From a virus (Duplodnaviria; Heunggongvirae; Uroviricota; Caudoviricetes): a DNA stretch of 42,574 nucleotides. The notes under the pieces were generated by a model that was not told where the DNA came from, did not search any database, and saw only the letters and a list, made by a program, of their open reading frames with translations. The stretch is taken from positions 1 through 42,574 of IMG/VR virus record IMGVR_UViG_2675903468_000002. One strand, given 5' to 3'. The translations under genes and the position numbers were made by a program. This document shows, piece after piece, positions 23,511-30,324 of the stretch (position 1 is its first letter; each line of letters starts with the position of its first letter).

Positions 23511-24056
23511 TTAAACCACCACGCGCTCTTTCATCCAGCCATAGACAAACGACTCATTGGCCTCGCGTTTCTCTGCCAGCTCCAGATAACGCTCGCCCTG
23601 CGTACAGTTCAGGGCTTTCACCAGTACCAGTTCACCATCCCTGCTGCGATTTTTCAGATATGCCCGTAATGCATTAAGAGTACGCGGCCCGATGCGTCCA
23701 TCAGCATCCATATCCGGATAGAGTTTCCCGCGCAGGTTGAAAACGTTCAGCCAGCGCTGAAGCATTCTGGACGCCACAGTTGGCCCCATGTTCACGCCCG
23801 TATCGCACAACTCTGCGGCAATATCAGGAGACAGGTCCTCAACCTGGTCGAATCGTGGTCCGTACCAGTAGTCCGCCTCGAGTATTTCCAGCGCCTGCCC
23901 ACGCGTCAGGTCACGCATATCGCCCTGATAACCGTGTGCACGGGCAACTTTTTCAGTGATGCCCCATTTAGTCGGACCACCTTTATCATCCGGGTGATTG
24001 ACGTAACCGCCCTCTTTTCCCAGAATTTCGTCAAAAATTTCATCTTTCGACTTCAT
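23511..24056 (-). CDS. Endolysin, glycoside hydrolase family 108-like with peptidoglycan-binding C-terminus
   Basis: Start MKSKDEIFDEILGKEGGYVNHPDDKGGPTKWGIT is the characteristic GH108 N-terminus; sits directly downstream of the holin-like genes. The ORF-track start at 24077 is a TTG. Confidence 0.75.
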   Translation of the reverse strand: MKSKDEIFDEILGKEGGYVNHPDDKGGPTKWGITEKVARAHGYQGDMRDLTRGQALEILEADYWYGPRFDQVEDLSPDIAAELCDTGVNMGPTVASRMLQRWLNVFNLRGKLYPDMDADGRIGPRTLNALRAYLKNRSRDGELVLVKALNCTQGERYLELAEKREANESFVYGWMKERVVV

Positions 24057-24057
24057 A

Positions 24058-24336
24058 TCAGCGCCTTCGTAATACAAGGATTTTTGATACGTTCCCGCGT
24101 GCTCGTATCACCAGCACGCAGAACACCAGGTTAATCAGGACGACCAGCCAGTTACCGGGTGGAAAGCGACCACACAGATAACAAAGCGGCGCAAAGGCAT
24201 AAAGCAGCATCAGCAGCCAGGCCAGCCACGACATCAGCGGTTTATGTCTCGACTCACCACGACGATAAAAAAAGAGCGTCAGCACGATAACCGTGCTTAA
24301 CACCACATTCAGTAATCCGGGAAGGTTACTTAACAT
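24058..24336 (-). CDS. Membrane protein with ~3 TM segments between holin and endolysin (possible second holin or antiholin)
   Basis: 92 aa, hydrophobic (LLNVVLSTVIVLTLFF, LAWLLMLLYAFAPLCYL, LVVLINLVFCVLVI); overlaps both neighbours. Confidence 0.45.
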   Translation of the reverse strand: MLSNLPGLLNVVLSTVIVLTLFFYRRGESRHKPLMSWLAWLLMLLYAFAPLCYLCGRFPPGNWLVVLINLVFCVLVIRARGNVSKILVLRRR

Positions 24337-24715
24337 TACCGCCTCCCCCCCGCAGACGGGAGAACAGCCCGGATACCAGCGATGCGATATCCTGCTGGTG
24401 GATGAATGAGAGAATCTTCACCGACACCACCGATACCAGTACCGCGCAAAGCGCGTCGAGAGATGTGCTGTGGAGATTCAGTTTTTCAACCAGGTAAGAC
24501 GCCATCACATCCGCCCCCAGCACGCCAACAATGAACGACACCAGAAAATGCGCTGCCACACGCCAGACAGAAATCTGCTGTGGTATCGTGGCCACAAACA
24601 GCGCCCCTGCGAATGCACCAAACACAATCCCGAAATCCGTTCCGGTAAACAGCCCGAATACCGTCGCCCCACCGAGCGCCGCAGCCGTGCCGGAACCGGA
24701 TAAGGGTTCAGACAT
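24326..24715 (-). CDS. Putative holin
   Basis: Start MSEPLSGSG with AGGAGA RBS; several Gly/Ala-rich TM helices; immediately upstream of the lysis membrane protein and endolysin. Confidence 0.55.
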   Translation of the reverse strand: MSEPLSGSGTAAALGGATVFGLFTGTDFGIVFGAFAGALFVATIPQQISVWRVAAHFLVSFIVGVLGADVMASYLVEKLNLHSTSLDALCAVLVSVVSVKILSFIHQQDIASLVSGLFSRLRGGGGNVK

Positions 24716-24951
24716 ACTTTTTCTCCTGTCAATAAAAAGGGCCACCAGCGGCCCGTAAAAAACACCCTGTCAAAGGTACCCGCAGATGCCTTTTGTTTGG
24801 TGTTATTCATATTTGTGCAGTAAAGGCCAGAGAACGACCATCACCATCGCCACCAGCACGCCATCAGCCAGCACCGACATCAGCCGTCCGGTAAAATCCA
24901 CTGCCACTACCAGAAACAGCAGGATGGCAGCCAGCACAAGGCGCGCACTTT

Positions 24952-25377
24952 TCACAGGTACTGCTCCAGCGGCAACTGCAGCGCCTGCGCAATTTTCTTG
25001 AGCTGTGCTTCTTCATCCGGACCAATGCCATCCTGGTCTGCAATATCCAGACACAGGCACAGCACATCAACCGCTTCGGCGGTTCCTGCCACATCAGCCA
25101 GTTCTCGCAAAGCCTGAGCATTCGCACTACGAGGCGATGCTTCATAACGGGCGCGGATATTCGCGCTCATCTGGGCAATCTCACCGGAGAACGGCGCAAA
25201 GGCAGGAAGTGTTGCAATGGTTTTCTCCAGTACCGCAATTTCTTTCGCGTCACAGGTGTCGTCAGCGTATGCAATGGAATACGCGCCCCAGACGGTCGCC
25301 TCCACCGCGTCGCGGTTCTCCATTTTCTTCACTTCAGTAATAGCCTTACGGGTTTTCTTTTTGAAAATACCAAACAT
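24952..25377 (-). CDS. TerB-like (tellurite-resistance TerB fold) protein
   Basis: Start MFGIFKKKTRKAITEVKKMENRDAVEA; helical acidic protein resembling the TerB domain family, assigned from recalled sequence features only. Confidence 0.4.
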   Translation of the reverse strand: MFGIFKKKTRKAITEVKKMENRDAVEATVWGAYSIAYADDTCDAKEIAVLEKTIATLPAFAPFSGEIAQMSANIRARYEASPRSANAQALRELADVAGTAEAVDVLCLCLDIADQDGIGPDEEAQLKKIAQALQLPLEQYL

Positions 25378-25576
25378 CGTGACTTTTCCTTTTAGTGGGT
25401 GAGCCTCGCCCCGGGATGAGCAGCCCACAGAGAAAGTCACACTGACCATCCCGTAAGCTCCCCCCCCTGAAAGGCTCTGTGGTTTTTTGATGTGCGCCGG
25501 GCGTGGCGCAGATATGAAAAAGGCCACGCACGTGCGCAGCCTGATAATTTTCTGAATCAGCGGAGTGTCAGCTGGT

Positions 25577-26104
25577 TTACCCTTTCACTTCTGAAAGGGA
25601 TTTTTTGCCAAACGTCACTTCATTCATTGACATAAGTATGCTGTCTTTAATGTATTCGCACACTTCATTAATTTTTGCGTTGGTATCCACATGCGAAAAT
25701 GTCCTGGCCTGATAACCATCAACCGAAATCGTCATGTTGTCGCCATCAAGTAACAGAATACTCACTGTAATATTCACACTTACAGACTGGCGGGGATCAT
25801 CATCAACAACCGTATATAAATTAAAAGTAACCCCATCCTGAAAATCTACCTGCAAATCCTCCGGTTTCTCACAACAACTATCATGAGAAAGATAAACATA
25901 GGGATGGGAGTTACCGTCAATATCCAGCCATCGTGGTTTCGGCAATGCCAGTGAGTCTTCATAGGTCTTGACCAGCCTTTTTGCCATATCCCGCAGTCGC
26001 TGGATGTACTCCTGTCTGGCCTCCTGAATTTCAGCCTGCTTTTCCCGAATGTCTGCATATGTGATCACAGTCTCAATTCTCCTGTATACAGAAAAATAAA
26101 CCAT
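25577..26104 (-). CDS. Hypothetical protein (function unknown)
   Basis: ORF whose upstream part (26105-26200) contains a terminator, so start set at ATG 26104; alternative GTG at 26068 has an AGGAGA RBS. Confidence 0.5.
   Translation of the reverse strand: MVYFSVYRRIETVITYADIREKQAEIQEARQEYIQRLRDMAKRLVKTYEDSLALPKPRWLDIDGNSHPYVYLSHDSCCEKPEDLQVDFQDGVTFNLYTVVDDDPRQSVSVNITVSILLLDGDNMTISVDGYQARTFSHVDTNAKINEVCEYIKDSILMSMNEVTFGKKSLSEVKG
25579..25606 (+). terminator. Strong plus-strand intrinsic terminator overlapping the 3' end of a minus-strand gene
   Basis: CCCTTTCA-CTTC-TGAAAGGG followed by ATTTTTTG on plus strand; no U-tract in the minus orientation. Confidence 0.5.
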
Positions 26105-26163
26105 AATAATAGCCAACCGGGAAAAGATGAAAAATGCCATAACAGAACAGGCATTGCGCACGG

Positions 26164-26191
26164 ATAAAAAAATGCCCGTCATGAGACGGGC
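26164..26191 (-). terminator. Intrinsic terminator (minus strand)
   Basis: GCCCGTC-TCAT-GACGGGC followed by ATTTTTTTATCC on minus strand. Confidence 0.6.
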
Positions 26192-26748
26192 CCAAAGCAT
26201 TCATCGTATAAGAATTAGACAGCGTTTAATTGTATGGTTACTACCAGAATGATTCGTCAGCCTGCAACGTAATTCTGACGAATCACAGACCCCGAAACAG
26301 GCAGCGACTCATTCTGATAAAAACCATCCGATGATACACAACGTTAACAATGTAAAAAACAGCACCGAAACTGTAATCAGTCAGATATTACAGAATGAAG
26401 AACGACAAAGGCGCTTGCAAAACCTGTTCTCCGCGAAACTCGCCAGTGCTGAAACGATATGCCTCATTTGTTTACCAGTGCGGGTAGCAGAAATTACCCT
26501 CACACATAAAATGCTGACTTCCGGAATCACACTGCTGACCGGTTATTACTGAATCAACAAACTGATCACCAGGAAGTCAGCACTGACCTTTCCGGTGGTA
26601 TTAACACCCTGTGAACACAAAACGACCACCTTTAGGTCGTCACAAATACTAACAATGATTGTGTGGGCATCAAAAATATATTTGGTGTTCAGTTTTAAAT
26701 ATGTGTATACATCTGTATCAGAAATATACAACTTATATCATCACTGAA

Positions 26749-27795
26749 TTAAAAATCTTTCGTTATTTCTCTGACCGTCTGATTAAAACGTTCCTCTTCC
26801 AGTTCCACGCCAATCGCCCTGCATCCCAGCGACAGTGCCGCTTTTATTGTCGACCCCGACCCCATAAAAAAATCTGCGACCAAATCGCCTGGACGGCTGC
26901 TGGCAGTAATTATCTGACGCAACATATCCGCCGGTTTTTCACAGGGATGCTTACCCGGATAAAACTGCACGGGCTTGTGCGTCCAGACATCCGTATAAGG
27001 AACGACAGCCGATACGGAAAAATAACGCCGCAGTGATTTGTATTCCTCCAGCAGGCTGGCATATTGCCGGTTCAGTTCGCTGTATGTGCTGACCAGCTGG
27101 TGGTGTGGCTGCTCCAGTTCACCGCGCTGGTGTTTTTCTGCCACCACACGTGCAAACAGCGCCTGCAGTTTACTGTAATCGGCCTCATTCGGTAACTGCC
27201 ACTGACTGGTACCAAACCAGTGCGAAGCCATGTTTTTCTTTCCGGTGGCTTCTGCTATCTGTTTTGACGTTATCCCCAGTGATTCGCGCGCATCACGAAA
27301 GTAAGAAATCAGCGGGGCCATGACATGCTGCTTAAGCTCGCGCCCCTTTGCTGCATAACCGTCACTTTTGGGCTGGTATGGCCCCTGATAATGTTCGGCA
27401 AACAGAATGCGCTCTGTTGCCGGGAAATACGCCCGCAGGCTTTCCTTGTTGCACCCATTCCAGCGTCCGGACGGCTTCGCCCAGATAATGTGGTTCAGCA
27501 CATTAAAGCGTTCACGCATCATGATTTCGATATCAGATGCCAGGCGATGACCACAGAACAGGTAGAGACTTCCGGCAGGTTTCAGTACCCGCCAGAACTG
27601 CGCCAGACACTGAGCCAGCCATTTCAGGTAATCATCGTCCCCCTTCCACTGGTTATCCCAGCCCTCGGGCTTCACTTTAAAGTATGGCGGGTCTGTGACT
27701 ATCAGATCGACAGAGTTTTCCGGTAAGGTCCGGATAAATTCCAGGCAATCAGCGTTGATTAACTCACAACTGGATATTTTTACAGTATTAGCCAT
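26749..27795 (-). CDS. DNA methyltransferase (N6-adenine or N4-cytosine, beta-class), apparently orphan
   Basis: 348 aa; motif IV DPPY (LIVTDPPYFKV) near the N-terminus and AdoMet motif I FxGxG (DFFMGSGST) near the C-terminus; no adjacent restriction endonuclease candidate. Confidence 0.85.
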   Translation of the reverse strand: MANTVKISSCELINADCLEFIRTLPENSVDLIVTDPPYFKVKPEGWDNQWKGDDDYLKWLAQCLAQFWRVLKPAGSLYLFCGHRLASDIEIMMRERFNVLNHIIWAKPSGRWNGCNKESLRAYFPATERILFAEHYQGPYQPKSDGYAAKGRELKQHVMAPLISYFRDARESLGITSKQIAEATGKKNMASHWFGTSQWQLPNEADYSKLQALFARVVAEKHQRGELEQPHHQLVSTYSELNRQYASLLEEYKSLRRYFSVSAVVPYTDVWTHKPVQFYPGKHPCEKPADMLRQIITASSRPGDLVADFFMGSGSTIKAALSLGCRAIGVELEEERFNQTVREITKDF

Positions 27796-27945
27796 AGATC
27801 AATAAGCTCTTCTCTGATAGGCTCATACCGCTTTTGCGCAAAGCAGATGGGCCTGAGGTTTGCTTGTGATCCCAACGCATGAGCAGATGGCTGGCAGGTG
27901 CCGCTAACACCCACCAGCCGCCCATTACCACAAATTAAAAAGCCT

Positions 27946-28143
27946 TCACTGAGGAAGGCGTCTGTAACAACCGAACTGATAATCTGCCAGACCCGCCATA
28001 ACAAGCTGGGTCAGTATTAACTGGCAGCGTTCGCGTGAAAGGTAAGTATTCTGCGCAATTTCCCCGACGGTCGCCGGTTCGGTGACGCTTAATTCATTAA
28101 ACACCACTCTGGCGGTTTCGGTCATATCCTGCTGTTTTAGCAT
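27946..28143 (-). CDS. Small putative DNA-binding protein (winged-helix-like), function unknown
   Basis: Internal start MLKQQDMTETARVVFNELSVTEPATVGEIAQNTYLSRERCQLILTQLVMAGLADYQ; 150 bp upstream of the methyltransferase on the same strand. Confidence 0.35.
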   Translation of the reverse strand: MLKQQDMTETARVVFNELSVTEPATVGEIAQNTYLSRERCQLILTQLVMAGLADYQFGCYRRLPQ

Positions 28144-28650
28144 GTCTTTTTCCCTTTTCCGGTTAACGTGACATACCAATAACTCTTGTCGAAAAAGCCA
28201 GCAAGCTGAAAGACCGGTATTCGTAACCACCAGCACGTTTAACGTCCTGTGCCGTTTTTCGGGTACAAAAAACAGCCCGACGGCGGTTTTAAGGAAGGAG
28301 TCGAAGCAACCACTCTTAACATCATAATTGAATTTTTACGTACGTAAACCACAAATACGCCACTCAAATGTTAATGCTCTATAACAAAACCAAACATGCG
28401 AATAACACATATTACACCAAATACATCATTGTTATTTTTCAATGAAAAATGAGTAAATAATGTATTTCATTAATTAAATTCCGCATTACACAAAAATATC
28501 GACAAATTACACCAACGCGCATAAATGAGATCTTGATCATATTATCAATCACTAAATTAAACTTGCCTCTTGAAATAACCACATTGATTAGATGAATATT
28601 TATCGCGCAGTGACATCATTTTTTAAAATAGTTCAAAAAAAGGGTTCGTG

Positions 28651-29760
28651 ATGAAAAAATTAACGGTGGCAATTTCTGCTGTGGCTGCATCAGTATCAGT
28701 ACTGATGGCGATGTCTGCTCAGGCAGCAGAGATTTATAATAAAGACAGCAACAAGTTGGATCTGTACGGAAAAGTTAATGCTAAGCACTACTTCTCCTCT
28801 AACGATGCAAATGATGGCGACACAACTTATGCTCGTCTGGGTTTCAAAGGCGAAACTCAGATCAACGATCAACTGACTGGTTTCGGTCAGTGGGAATATG
28901 AATTCAAAGGAAACCGTACTGAAGAACAGGGAGCAGCCAAAGATAAAACCCGTCTTGCATTTGCAGGGCTTAAATTCGGTGACTACGGCTCCGTCGATTA
29001 CGGTCGTAACTACGGTGTAGCATACGATATCGGTGCATGGACTGACGTTCTGCCAGAATTCGGTGGAGATACTTGGACCCAAACAGATGTATTCATGACT
29101 GGTCGCACCACTGGTGTTGCAACTTATCGTAACAACGACTTCTTTGGTCTGGTTGATGGTCTGAATTTTGCTGCACAGTACCAGGGTAAGAATAATCATG
29201 ATCGTAGTAGCTTAGATAACTACACCAAAGGCAATGGCGATGGTTTTGGTTTCTCTGCGACCTATGAATACGAAGGTTTCGGCATTGGTGCAACGTATGC
29301 GAAATCTGATCGTACCGACACTCAAGTCAAATTGGGTAAACTTCTCCCAGGAGTATTTGCTTCCGGCGAAAATGCAGAAGTCTGGGCTGCAGGTCTGAAA
29401 TACGACGCAAACAACGTTTATCTGGCAACAACCTATTCAGAAACCCAGAATATGACTAAATTCGCAGATTACTTTGTGGCTAATAAAGCACAAAACTTCG
29501 AAGCTGTTGCACAATATCAGTTCGATTTCGGTCTGCGTCCGTCTGTTGCTTATCTGCAATCAAAAGGTAAAGATCTTGGCATTTTTGGTGACCAAGATTT
29601 AGTCAAATATGTTGATGTTGGCGCAACTTATTATTTCAACAAAAATATGTCTACATTCGTTGATTACAAAATCAACCTGCTTGACAAAAATGACTTTACT
29701 AAAGCTCTTGGTGTAAACACTGACGATATCGTTGCTGTAGGTATGGTATACCAGTTCTAA
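28651..29760 (+). CDS. nmpC: Outer membrane porin, NmpC/Lc/OmpC family (phage-encoded)
   Basis: [25 protein letters not shown] signal peptide then [24 protein letters not shown]...ending VGMVYQF; trimeric-porin hallmarks; closely matches recalled DLP12 NmpC; opposite strand to Q and lysis genes as in DLP12. Confidence 0.95.
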
Positions 29761-29940: not shown

Positions 29941-30324
29941 TTAATTAAGCTTAGTAACATCAATATCCATCTCTAAGCAAATGTCTAATGCCATTAACAT
30001 ACCTTCGATTATTCCCTCTGCTTTCTGTAACCTTTTCCCGATATACCCATCAGAGCAATTATGCTTCCGCGCCAGCATCATAAACGTCATCCCACCAACA
30101 TAATAATCCACCAGCAAATCATGTAAGCCATTGTTGCTCTTTTTCAGACAGGCCATACATCCACAAATGATCATCGCGTCATCGTCACAGCATTGCGGAC
30201 GAGATCTTACTTTTGAAGGAATTAATCCCTTAAAACCGGCGGCAACGGACGACCAGGTCACATCTTCATGATTATTAGCCGCCCACGCTCCCCAACGCTC
30301 AAGAACCATCTGAATATCACGCAT
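29941..30324 (-). CDS. Q: Late-gene antiterminator Q (phage 82 / DLP12 QuuD type)
   Basis: 127 aa, [24 protein letters not shown]...[18 protein letters not shown]; matches recalled QuuD; located just upstream of the porin, as quuD-nmpC in DLP12. Confidence 0.85.

Follow-up and report, generated by a model that had tools for sequence, protein, structure and literature searches.

How can a prophage safely carry the gene for an enzyme that would harm the cell in which it resides? The question is raised by one region of the window, by which we mean the whole 42,574-nucleotide stretch of phage DNA analysed here. An earlier note had picked out in it an island of cargo genes—a DNA methyltransferase, a small DNA-binding protein, an unassigned protein and a TerB-like protein—between the antiterminator gene Q and the lysis genes. 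All four are genuine genes and lie on the minus strand (as does every feature below unless stated otherwise) within 24952–28236, bounded by Q (29941–30324) on one side and by holins and an endolysin on the other, but three of the open reading frames, those for the winged-helix (wHTH), TerB and unassigned proteins, had been drawn too long. Absent from that account were a DUF3927 gene, a porin gene, a decayed tRNA-Gly and a conserved RNA leader. What the region amounts to is the usual mosaic of late-gene cargo in a phiP27-like E. coli prophage, an island of a known kind built around a close relative of M.EcoGII, and the island itself changes little: it is widespread and already annotated in phiP27- and Stx-type prophages, and the methylase family has been characterised. 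What the leader adds is a candidate RNA family, one that comparison supports well. Our overall explanation, of which we are moderately confident, is that a Q-dependent late frame carries an anti-restriction methyltransferase of the M.EcoGII clade and that the enzyme is kept off by two layers, one of them this RNA.

In our reading, a phiP27-like lambdoid prophage has here the promoter-proximal part of its Q-dependent late operon, a fixed frame (Q, slot A, pR'/tR', the wHTH gene, the leader, the methyltransferase gene, slot B, TerB–DUF3927 and the lysis genes) whose cargo modules are exchanged independently. Q, at the upstream border of the late region, is a distant relative of Q21 (PF06530, E 5.5e-52; phrog_79), and the Q21 structures 6P18/6JNX match it at E 6.7e-8. 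Between Q and the late promoter, slot A holds the gene for an OmpC-like porin (28651–29760, plus strand; PF00267, E 8e-152), an independent moron with AT-rich flanks (GC 0.34–0.40) that runs antisense to the late operon; elsewhere, slot A holds a GIY-YIG nuclease (phiP27), an OB-fold protein (locus L005) or a membrane protein (locus L017).

At 28262–28348, a promoter-like site and comparison with relatives point to a putative late promoter pR', its initial transcribed sequence and a tR'-type hairpin with a T-run. The site itself (TTTACG-16-TATGAT, 28348–28321) lies upstream of the wHTH gene, and GTTAAGAGTGGTT comes next as the conserved initial transcribed sequence. Relatives have a strong hairpin, but that of the window is weak. 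The earlier note had credited the small wHTH gene with a promoter-like sequence of its own and found it reminiscent of a controller protein. A promoter-like site is indeed present, but the block around it switches with the Q family: it is conserved with phiP27 and 1720a-02, both of which have the same Q family as the window, and in loci with a PF06323 Q a different sequence replaces it, with a terminator at the same place, so that the promoter-proximal block co-varies with Q and the terminator position and downstream sequence are common to the loci. Since this is the behaviour expected of a late promoter/qut site, the gene's “own promoter” is best read as pR' with its terminator, and we infer pR', tR' and Q-dependence from position and comparison only. 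The stx genes at the equivalent position depend on pR' and Q (PMC7547250; PMC6266700).

Downstream of the methyltransferase gene lie further cargo modules. A decayed tRNA-Gly remnant (about 26476–26555), which aligns to the tRNA-Gly(UCC) of the E. coli C5 prophage, sits in the 680-nt AT-rich region between the methyltransferase gene and the gene that we call X; ARAGORN finds no intact tRNA in the window. The moron in slot B (25521–26191) consists of gene X (25577–26068; phrog_5091) and its own signals, namely an upstream hairpin with a T-run (26174–26191), a promoter-like site (26106–26133) and a downstream hairpin with a T-run (25521–25542). Gene X is the source of the unassigned protein, which was given about 175 residues and has 163, from a GTG at 26068 that is preceded by AGGAG and at which conservation begins exactly. 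Its modelled structure has a non-enzymatic α+β fold that is not nuclease-like and corresponds to no known effector fold; the protein is probably a small protein-binding factor, and its gene is an AT-rich moron at the stx position. In other loci, slot B contains stx2e and tRNAs, RelE-type or HicAB TA pairs, X, or nothing, and an uncharacterised 163-aa family at the stx position here shows how varied the cargo of this slot is, a point that bears on the movement of stx between phages.

The TerB-domain protein (24952–25377), which is indeed present, has 141 residues and not 191; PF05099 matches it at 28.9 bits (cut-off 24.4), over profile positions 60–106 of 118 only, phrog_632 matches at E 2e-63, and PGAP names it a “tellurite resistance TerB family protein.” There are no other ter genes near it, it is not in a terZABCDE operon, and its sole fixed partner is DUF3927, a small hydrophobic protein of 50 aa (24803–24955) that co-occurs with it in nearly all related loci. 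The start codon of DUF3927 and the stop codon of TerB share the sequence GTGA, an overlap that makes translational coupling of the two genes probable. The lysis cassette of two holins and a GH108 endolysin (23511–24745; PF16931, PF05449, PF05838 and PF09374) forms the downstream border.

Partial matches to the region occur in 3800 of 5426 complete E. coli genomes, and the frame is common to phiP27, 1720a-02, PPyecE_EH1910, EC11, C5 and loci in Klebsiella and Salmonella. That a cargo (moron) region lies between Q and the lysis genes was rightly seen, for phiP27 has tRNAs and stx2eAB in the identical frame where the window has X. It is not, however, one island: the parts recombine independently across loci, in combinations that vary freely (the methyltransferase without TerB or X; X–TerB without the methyltransferase), and gene X, TerB–DUF3927 and the porin gene are separate morons.

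The methyltransferase (26749–27795) is an orphan beta-class N6-adenine DNA methyltransferase of the M.EcoGII clade, with 348 residues, a PF01555 match at E 1e-42 (147 bits; cut-off 26.7) and the beta-class motif order of TDPPYF near the N-terminus (residues 34–39) and FFMGSGST near the C-terminus (residues 309–316). Pfam, PHROGs, NCBIfam and PADLOC place no nuclease or restriction partner among its neighbours (wHTH, X, TerB, DUF3927 and porin), in agreement with the earlier description of an orphan enzyme with DPPY and FxGxG motifs. It shares 295 of 345 residues (~86%) with M.EcoGII over the full length, including the TRD (residues ~160–237) and without large gaps, in a comparison with an M.EcoGII sequence that was machine-read from a PDF and has a few errors in it. 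It is 92% identical to L24 of phiP27 and 86% identical to the enzyme of phage 1720a-02, which Murray et al. 2018 (PMC5778455) call “very similar” to M.EcoGII. M.EcoGII is a prophage enzyme that methylates adenine in any context, is toxic when expressed and is silent in the lysogen (PMC5778455); reconstructed ancestors of its clade are also non-site-specific (PMC11551740). We predict that the window enzyme is sequence-non-specific as well, with the caution that a divergence of 14% could change specificity. Most likely, then, it would methylate adenines non-specifically and so shield progeny DNA from many adenine-sensitive restriction systems at once. Of the two roles that had been suggested for it, the protection of phage DNA is the most plausible; altering host epigenetics finds no support, because M.EcoGII, ~86% identical to it, recognises no sequence motif and stays unexpressed in its lysogen (PMC5778455). 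For the same reasons, the methylome of the lysogen against a cured strain, which had been offered as the check, would most likely be blank—probably a false negative that would wrongly “refute” the finding.

What, then, is the small protein encoded before the enzyme? It is a minimal winged helix of 65 aa (27946–28143; phrog_331; “TrmB family” in PGAP), and not the product of the 96-aa GTG frame, given that all distant homologues align from its Met1. Its gene is the first after the putative pR' and a frequent, not obligatory, partner of the methyltransferase gene, which it directly precedes in most loci. One could imagine, as the earlier note did, a C-protein-like controller with its own promoter, timing an orphan methyltransferase with a specific target motif in the lysogen, and the position of the gene, the promoter-like site before it and a modelled fold that DNA-binding regulators match would all suit such a role. 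However, the sole Pfam match is a sub-threshold TrmB winged helix (16.7 bits; cut-off 25.6) and not Xre/HTH_3 (PF01381-like), there are no C-box-like inverted repeats in 27750–28360, and there is no restriction gene, on which grounds we rejected C-protein identity. Moreover, the block upstream of the gene behaves as a Q-specific late promoter, 13 species-level loci have the methyltransferase and leader without the wHTH gene, and M.EcoGII, the closest characterised enzyme, is motif-less and silent in lysogens, all of which makes a controller very unlikely. We are just as sceptical that the methyltransferase, X, TerB and DUF3927 constitute a single system, for defence against phages or for stress, that the prophage would express for the protection of its lysogen. 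Lysogens could express X, which has promoter-like and terminator-like signals of its own and co-occurs with TerB and DUF3927, and relatives carry TA modules in the slot of X, but the modules of the region are found in all the combinations given above, X is without an enzymatic or known effector fold, and PADLOC 2.0 matched only generic MTase_II models, with none for X, TerB, DUF3927 or the porin. The link between TerB and defence that had been proposed finds neither a PADLOC match nor a supporting context.

Between the wHTH and methyltransferase genes lies a spacer (27796–27945) that conservation, covariation and folding identify as a conserved, structured 5' leader of the methyltransferase mRNA, ~150 nt long. 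Across Enterobacterales, its nucleotide identity is 77–83% vs. 59–77% in the flanking coding sequence, its length is fixed at 147–154 nt, and no frame stays open in it. It occurs only directly upstream of the methyltransferase ATG (75 of 104 loci in 855 kb of fetched DNA), and in viral contigs, its core precedes that ATG in 112 of 116 evaluable occurrences; relatives in Xenorhabdus and Photorhabdus have only a shortened leader that keeps helix P1. Rfam 15 contains no match to it at E up to 1 in 9 kb, and a search with the 211-nt leader region alone returned only chance-level miRNA and CRISPR matches (E 2.6–9.5).

The helices begin with P0, a terminator-like hairpin (GCCTTCC-TCAG-TGAAGGC and a T-run; 27942–27959) that a terminator scan placed across the wHTH stop codon and in which four of six pairs have double-sided changes across species. 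Then come P1 (27889–27919, with an outer extension at 27879–27925) and P3/P3a (27820–27853); P4 has no covariation. P5 pairs 27862–27872 with 27797–27807, the 11 nt just 5' of the AUG, and its alternative, P2, occupies 27859–27887. P2 and P5 are mutually exclusive, and there is covariation for both folds; the lineages that support a switch between them are a handful, mainly Proteus and Morganella. In an alignment built without reference to a structure, 85–92% of cells pair (30–48% with the partners slid), and 15–16 pairs show double-sided changes (5–9 in the slid control); none of 500 shuffles reaches the observed covariation, a control that overstates significance because the sequences are related. 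G.U pairs occur only on the sense strand, which has a minimum free energy (MFE) of −72.1 kcal/mol (z = −3.5). In the window, the MFE structure corresponds to the closed conformer, which is favoured by a median of 4.5 kcal/mol across 33 species, and a calculation on the nascent transcript does not favour P2 forming first. The leader is conserved and non-coding, fixed in position and rich in compensatory changes, which are the generic marks of a structured cis-regulatory leader RNA, and it is probably a new, apparently undescribed one.

Given the harm that such an enzyme does to the cell, two layers of control seem to keep it off. In the first, transcription would have to pass two terminator-like hairpins, tR' and then P0, which only a Q-modified RNA polymerase would read through efficiently. 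In the second, the favoured leader fold (the P1 extension plus P5) would pair the 11 nt just upstream of the AUG, a start codon without a Shine–Dalgarno sequence, and the alternative helix P2 would free that segment. The folded leader probably keeps translation of the toxic methyltransferase shut. More tentatively, and on balance we would not count on it, the leader may represent a new bistable cis-regulatory RNA family for M.EcoGII-type methyltransferases across Enterobacterales, closed by P5 and opened on a signal such as the wHTH protein acting like Mu Com, the methylase itself or a ligand (e.g., SAM/SAH). In the case of the methylase, the fold could respond to m6A or to binding, since RNA is both bound and methylated by M.EcoGII.

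If the signal were the wHTH protein, the circuit would resemble com/mom: an RNA-binding winged helix would bind the leader (e.g., P1), flip the closed P5 to the open P2 and enable translation. The arrangement invites the analogy, with a small nucleic-acid-binding protein encoded just upstream of a toxic DNA-modification gene whose start is occluded, covariation for both mutually exclusive folds and a closed default that implies a trigger; the fold of the protein is also similar to those of SelB, Z-alpha and other stand-alone winged helices with RNA or unusual nucleic acids as ligands, and in four contigs in which the methyltransferase has been replaced, the wHTH gene, P0 and P1 have stayed together. 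Yet DNA-binding regulators match this fold equally well, and leaders without a wHTH gene have the same helices, with a similar energy gap of 3.1 vs. 4.5 kcal/mol, and we consider the circuit rather unlikely. More improbable still is that the spacer acts as DNA, whether as an operator, as a “boundary sequence” at which recombination exchanges modules or as a hotspot that contains Chi. It does have palindromes (GCTTTGCGCAAAAGC), a Chi octamer in the P1 5' arm of most Enterobacteriaceae sequences and a module-replacement junction right after P1. However, its substitutions keep pairing rather than sequence, including G.U pairs workable only in sense-strand RNA; the sense strand folds better than the antisense; Proteus keeps the stems and loses Chi; and the window's Chi density is ordinary (12 sites in 42.5 kb). 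The reading that we prefer, a leader that occludes the start, would be a concrete, testable account of the safe carriage of a toxic gene by prophages, and it concerns a widely used reagent, M.EcoGII, for which we found no description of natural regulation in the literature.

How does this locus compare with what is known? Lambdoid morons include the porin genes nmpC of DLP12 and lc of PA-2 and also stx, and the porin gene and gene X resemble such morons in being AT-rich, in having promoter/terminator signals of their own and in being inserted among late-operon genes. The late region of the Stx2e phage phiP27 (L23-L24-tRNAs-stx2eAB; NC_003356) has the order of the window (Q, slot, wHTH, methyltransferase, slot B, holins), with an identical 65-aa wHTH protein, a 92% identical methyltransferase, two shared holin families and, in common, the Q family and the pR'-proximal block. 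The two differ in slot A (GIY-YIG nuclease vs. porin), in slot B (tRNA-Ile, tRNA-Arg and stx2eAB vs. the tRNA relic, gene X, TerB and DUF3927) and in their endolysins. In the Stx1/Stx2a phages, a constitutive late promoter and a close terminator upstream of cargo yield StxS, the pR'-to-tR' transcript (PMC7547250), and a similar short terminated transcript would be expected here in lysogeny; StxS has 258 nt and is processed to 74 nt (PMC7547250), whereas the predicted window transcript has ~55 nt, with no sequence similarity found between the two, a different Q/pR' type and a weak terminator.

M.EcoGII and M.EcoGI, from prophages of E. coli O104:H4 C227-11 (PMC5778455), are, like the window enzyme, beta-class N6-adenine methyltransferases, prophage-borne and orphan; M.EcoGII has 349 aa against 348 and differs at ~14% of residues, and the genomic frame, the upstream wHTH gene and the leader RNA are not described in the published M.EcoGII work (PMC5778455). 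C-protein-controlled restriction–modification systems also encode a small HTH-type protein upstream of a methyltransferase, but the window has no restriction gene, Xre-type HTH or C-boxes, and its pair of genes would sit in a Q-dependent late operon. Similar in design is com-mom of phage Mu: an inhibitory RNA stem sequesters the translation start of a toxic gene for DNA modification, which is expressed only late in the lytic cycle and is immediately preceded by the gene for Com, a small nucleic-acid-binding protein. Neither sequence nor fold relates the two systems, Com having a zinc finger and Mom being no SAM methyltransferase, and the window's leader also exists without a wHTH gene, but in architecture, they would be alike.

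The minus-strand genes at 24952-28236 are late-region cargo of the kind known from phiP27- and Stx-type prophages, with an orphan methylase of the M.EcoGII family among them, and what appears to be new in this region is a leader, predicted to be structured, in front of the methyltransferase gene. Here the phage genes lie on the minus strand, with the replicative helicase and then the Q antiterminator (29941-30324; PF06530, E 5.5e-52) on the upstream side. From Q, the order runs through an OmpC-like porin gene (28651-29760; PF00267, E 8e-152), which lies on the plus strand, opposite to the late genes, a 65-aa winged-helix gene, wHTH (27946-28143, minus), a beta-class DNA methyltransferase gene (26749-27795, minus; PF01555, E 1e-42), the 163-aa gene X (minus, from a GTG start at 26068 with AGGAG in front of it), a 141-aa TerB-domain gene (24952-25377, minus), a 50-aa DUF3927 gene (24803-24955, minus) and the lysis genes, namely two holin genes and then a GH108 endolysin gene. 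An earlier note, made from the sequence alone, had listed four of these genes as a cargo island and had left out DUF3927; gene calls and profile matches find all four where it had put them, and its gene content was right, with the wHTH, TerB and X models drawn too long. The 65-aa wHTH model is the PGAP annotation in a 99.8%-identical E. coli prophage, and its Met1 is the alignment start for all distant homologues. For X, conservation begins exactly at GTG 26068 in 15 homologues, the N-terminal extensions being mutually unrelated.

By DNA searches, the late region of the window is phiP27-type. The Stx2e phage phiP27 itself has the order Q, GIY-YIG nuclease, wHTH, methyltransferase, tRNA-Ile, tRNA-Arg, stx2eA, stx2eB and holins; its 65-aa wHTH protein is identical to that of the window, its methyltransferase is 92% identical, and the two holin families are the same. 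Phage 1720a-02 runs Q-wHTH-methyltransferase-stx2, PPyecE_EH1910 has a RelE/ParE-type TA pair where stx sits and TerB next to it, a Klebsiella prophage has HicAB at the stx position, and in a Salmonella prophage the interval from methyltransferase to holin is empty. The wHTH-methyltransferase pair stands behind four families of Q (PF06530, PF03589, PF06323 and DUF1133/PF06576, the last of which also gives a weak PF06530 match), and the X-TerB-DUF3927 set is seen without the methyltransferase just as the methyltransferase is seen without that set. Because the modules of these relatives occur in differing combinations, the “island” is a frame with two exchange slots and optional modules, and the idea that the region is cargo has held up in this form: a phiP27- and Stx-type late frame with swapped modules. 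Of 5426 complete E. coli genomes, 3800 matched parts of the 4-kb query, and only two the whole arrangement. Slot A, from Q to the putative late promoter, holds the porin in the window and a GIY-YIG nuclease, an OB-fold protein or a membrane protein in relatives; slot B, after the methyltransferase, holds a tRNA relic and X. The porin gene, which is antisense to the late genes in this slot and has AT-rich flanks, is a separate moron, which we take to be comparable to nmpC of DLP12 or lc of PA-2.

The 680-nt intergenic region upstream of X (26069-26748) is 77% identical to its counterpart in the E. coli C5 prophage, which keeps an intact tRNA-Gly(UCC) at the homologous position (L010, 4248-4319); alignment to that tRNA places a decayed tRNA-Gly(UCC) remnant at about 26476-26555 (minus), and ARAGORN reports no tRNA gene in the window. 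The X stretch (gene at 25577-26068) is AT-rich (GC 0.41-0.44 vs 0.52-0.55 in the flanks) and has hairpin-plus-T-run sites on both sides and a promoter-like site upstream, and its predicted layout is that of a classic moron. What, then, might X be? It belongs to phrog_5091 (17 close clusters), and a Pfam scan of 10 representatives gave no significant match. AlphaFold models X (pLDDT 82, pTM 0.76) with a long helix at the N-terminus, a further helix at the C-terminus and an antiparallel sheet. A membrane or TraQ-like protein would need the hydrophobic N-terminus, a stretch that is unconserved and precedes the real start; for a nuclease, or a partner in restriction, the model lacks the fold; and a fragment of a known gene does not fit a family conserved at full length in 109 representatives at 50% identity. 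With low confidence, we regard X as a small factor that binds protein and is expressed by the prophage.

Beyond X, the TerB gene has a narrow Pfam match (28.9 bits vs a threshold of 24.4, with partial profile coverage) and a strong one to phrog_632, and no other ter genes lie near it. Its stop codon overlaps the GTG start of DUF3927 (GTGA, 24952-24955), which suggests a soluble TerB-domain protein translationally coupled with a small hydrophobic DUF3927 partner; nearly all related loci have the two genes together. PADLOC gives no match for TerB or DUF3927, which leaves unsupported the link to phage defence that had been drawn for TerB.

The methyltransferase has the motifs TDPPYF near the N-terminus and FFMGSGST near the C-terminus, and four profile libraries reveal no nuclease-like neighbour, so that its orphan status is borne out. 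It is 86% identical to the 1720a-02 enzyme and agrees with M.EcoGII at 295 of 345 positions without large gaps, the M.EcoGII sequence compared being machine-read from the supplement of PMC11551740 and containing a few errors. M.EcoGII (349 aa), from a prophage of E. coli O104:H4, methylates adenine whatever the surrounding sequence; its expression is deleterious, and the lysogen does not express it (PMC5778455). Reconstructed ancestors of its clade are likewise non-site-specific (PMC11551740). On sequence grounds the window enzyme is assigned to this clade, and we infer that it, too, is non-specific for sequence. The suggestion that it alters the epigenetics of the lysogen is thus probably wrong, since M.EcoGII is silent in lysogens and has no motif, and for the same reasons a methylome of the lysogen against a cured strain would probably yield no new motif. 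In one viral contig (L017), an internal deletion leaves a 162-aa methyltransferase with wHTH, X, TerB and DUF3927 kept; three others (L018, L020 and L024) have the same wHTH/X/TerB pattern and no full-length methyltransferase match. Such losses would be the decay of a toxic gene in some prophages.

The wHTH protein, which the earlier note had likened to a controller with its own promoter, probably is no such thing: it is not an Xre-type C protein, C-box-like repeats were not found, and its model (pLDDT 92) is a minimal winged helix of three helices and two strands with no extra domain. Directly 5' of its gene lies a conserved block consisting of a promoter-like site (28348-28321), an invariant GTTAAGAGTGGTT and a GC hairpin with a T-run. 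At loci with a PF06323 Q, the promoter-proximal sequence differs, with a hairpin and T-run at the same place and a common sequence downstream. A Q-specific pR'/qut/tR' unit should switch in just this Q-linked way, and the proposed private promoter is better taken for the putative phage late promoter, given that the upstream block changes with the Q family. This reading puts the porin between Q and pR' and would put wHTH and the methyltransferase at the head of the late operon; where stx genes occupy this position, they are driven from pR' under Q control (PMC7547250; PMC6266700). The tR'-type hairpin (28262-28292, minus) is clean in phiP27, 1720a-02 and locus L006 and degraded in the window, where the remaining weak stem takes in part of the U-run. 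Not until P0 (27942-27959), which spans the wHTH stop codon, does the window have a well-formed terminator-like hairpin; because P0 comes only after the gene, wHTH might be transcribed in lysogens. About 60 nt directly 5' of the wHTH ATG (GCTTGCTGGCTTTTTCGACAAGAGTTATTGGTATGTCACGTTAACC...; 28144-28205, minus) are nearly invariant across Q families and slot-A contents.

Between the wHTH stop and the methyltransferase ATG lies a spacer of 150 nt (27796-27945, minus) that is 87% conserved among E. coli, Klebsiella and Salmonella. Across 33 distinct Enterobacterales sequences, it is 147-154 nt long (138-142 nt in Proteus and Morganella), and it matches the window at 77-83% of nucleotides, whereas the genes on either side match at 59-77%; the Rosenbergiella values are 0.83 for the spacer, 0.59 for the wHTH gene and 0.71 for the methyltransferase gene. 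Xenorhabdus and Photorhabdus relatives have a shorter leader that keeps the helix P1 (27889-27919 in the window) with new covarying arm sequences. The specificity of this leader rests on two scans, one with an nhmmer profile and one with an exact core. The profile matched the sense strand directly before the methyltransferase ATG at 75 of 104 loci in 855 kb of fetched DNA, and the only match elsewhere was one extra partial copy. That copy, in Trabulsiella (L038, 2015-2082), covers the 5' half, the P1 region, and the genuine leader follows some 900 nt downstream. Loci L029, L032 and L035-L111 have the leader directly upstream of the methyltransferase ATG. In 112 of the 116 evaluable occurrences of the 21-nt P1 core in viral contigs, the methyltransferase ATG follows at +130 to +132; in the four exceptions, foreign AT-rich DNA replaces the methyltransferase and the 3' half of the leader, with the junction just after P1. 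These four contigs (L131, L169, L195 and L214) keep wHTH, P0 and P1 intact, and the replacing DNA encodes an unrelated 237-aa protein.

Several more familiar explanations of this conservation can be considered. A hidden small gene is out, with stops in all three frames in most species and no open reading frame running through the spacer across the 33 sequences. A Chi site does fall in the 5' arm of P1 (at 27911), and another lies just upstream of the wHTH gene (at 28227), among the twelve Chi octamers of the window, nine of them on the minus strand, in the sense of the late operon. The E. coli genome has one such site per 4-5 kb, and we judge the window, at a density close to that figure, to be ordinary; Proteus, moreover, keeps the stem without Chi, and so Chi is not the cause. 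The Pas sRNAs and StxS differ from the leader in both position and sequence, Rfam 15 has no family matching it, and no description of a structured methyltransferase leader was found in Rfam or in the literature searched. The wHTH gene is 5' of the methyltransferase at 59 of the 80 species-level loci fetched (a few contigs being without upstream sequence) and 5' of the leader core in 110 of 114 evaluable occurrences in viral contigs, and it is kept, at only 39-63% identity, in Proteus, Morganella, Xenorhabdus and Photorhabdus. At 13 species-level loci, methyltransferase and leader occur without a detected wHTH homologue; two of these were inspected, and upstream L105 has unrelated ORFs, whereas L038 lacks any small gene. 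A strict dependence of the leader on wHTH is unsupported by the single test made.

How does the leader fold? On a plain MAFFT alignment, RNAalifold gives a long stem-loop and a second domain, with compensatory changes in both. We tested two hand-curated structures by counting pairs against slid partners, the first also against shuffles. With helices P0, P1, P2, P3, P3a and P4, 85.3% of cells pair (30-42% when slid), and double-sided changes occur in 16 pairs vs 5-9 slid and 9.3±1.8 shuffled, a count reached by 0 of 500 shuffles. P4, which adjoins the AUG, showed no covariation and gave way to P5, in which GGAUCACAAGC (27862-27872) would pair with GCUUAUUGAUC (27797-27807). With P0, P1 and its outer extension (27879-27925), P3, P3a and P5, 91.7% of cells pair (32-48% slid), with double-sided changes in 15 pairs vs 5-9 slid. 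For both structures, the sequences are related, and a few lineages supply much of the double-change signal. Pairing in P5 stands at 94%, three of its positions show double changes, and its 3' strand is the 11 nt immediately 5' of the methyltransferase AUG, which has no Shine-Dalgarno sequence. The alternative helix P2 (27859-27887) covaries strongly, one position appearing as C-G, U-A, A-U and U-G, and, as it uses the same strands differently, neither P5 nor the P1 extension can form together with it. G.U pairs in the leader occur in the sense strand only; that strand of the window is predicted to fold as the P5 conformer, at -72.1 kcal/mol (z = -3.5), and the antisense to fold less well.

The closed conformer, that is, the P1 extension with P5, is favoured over the open P2 alternative across species by a median of 4.5 kcal/mol, and it is favoured in truncated “nascent” transcripts as well; from these computed energies, the default state of the leader appears to be off. 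A kinetic trap, in which P2 forms first on the nascent RNA, is unsupported, the P1 extension being favoured in 30 of 33 truncated transcripts. Two mutually exclusive folds, each with covariation behind it, suggest a translational gate on a toxic enzyme, and the closest analogy is probably the com-mom system of phage Mu.
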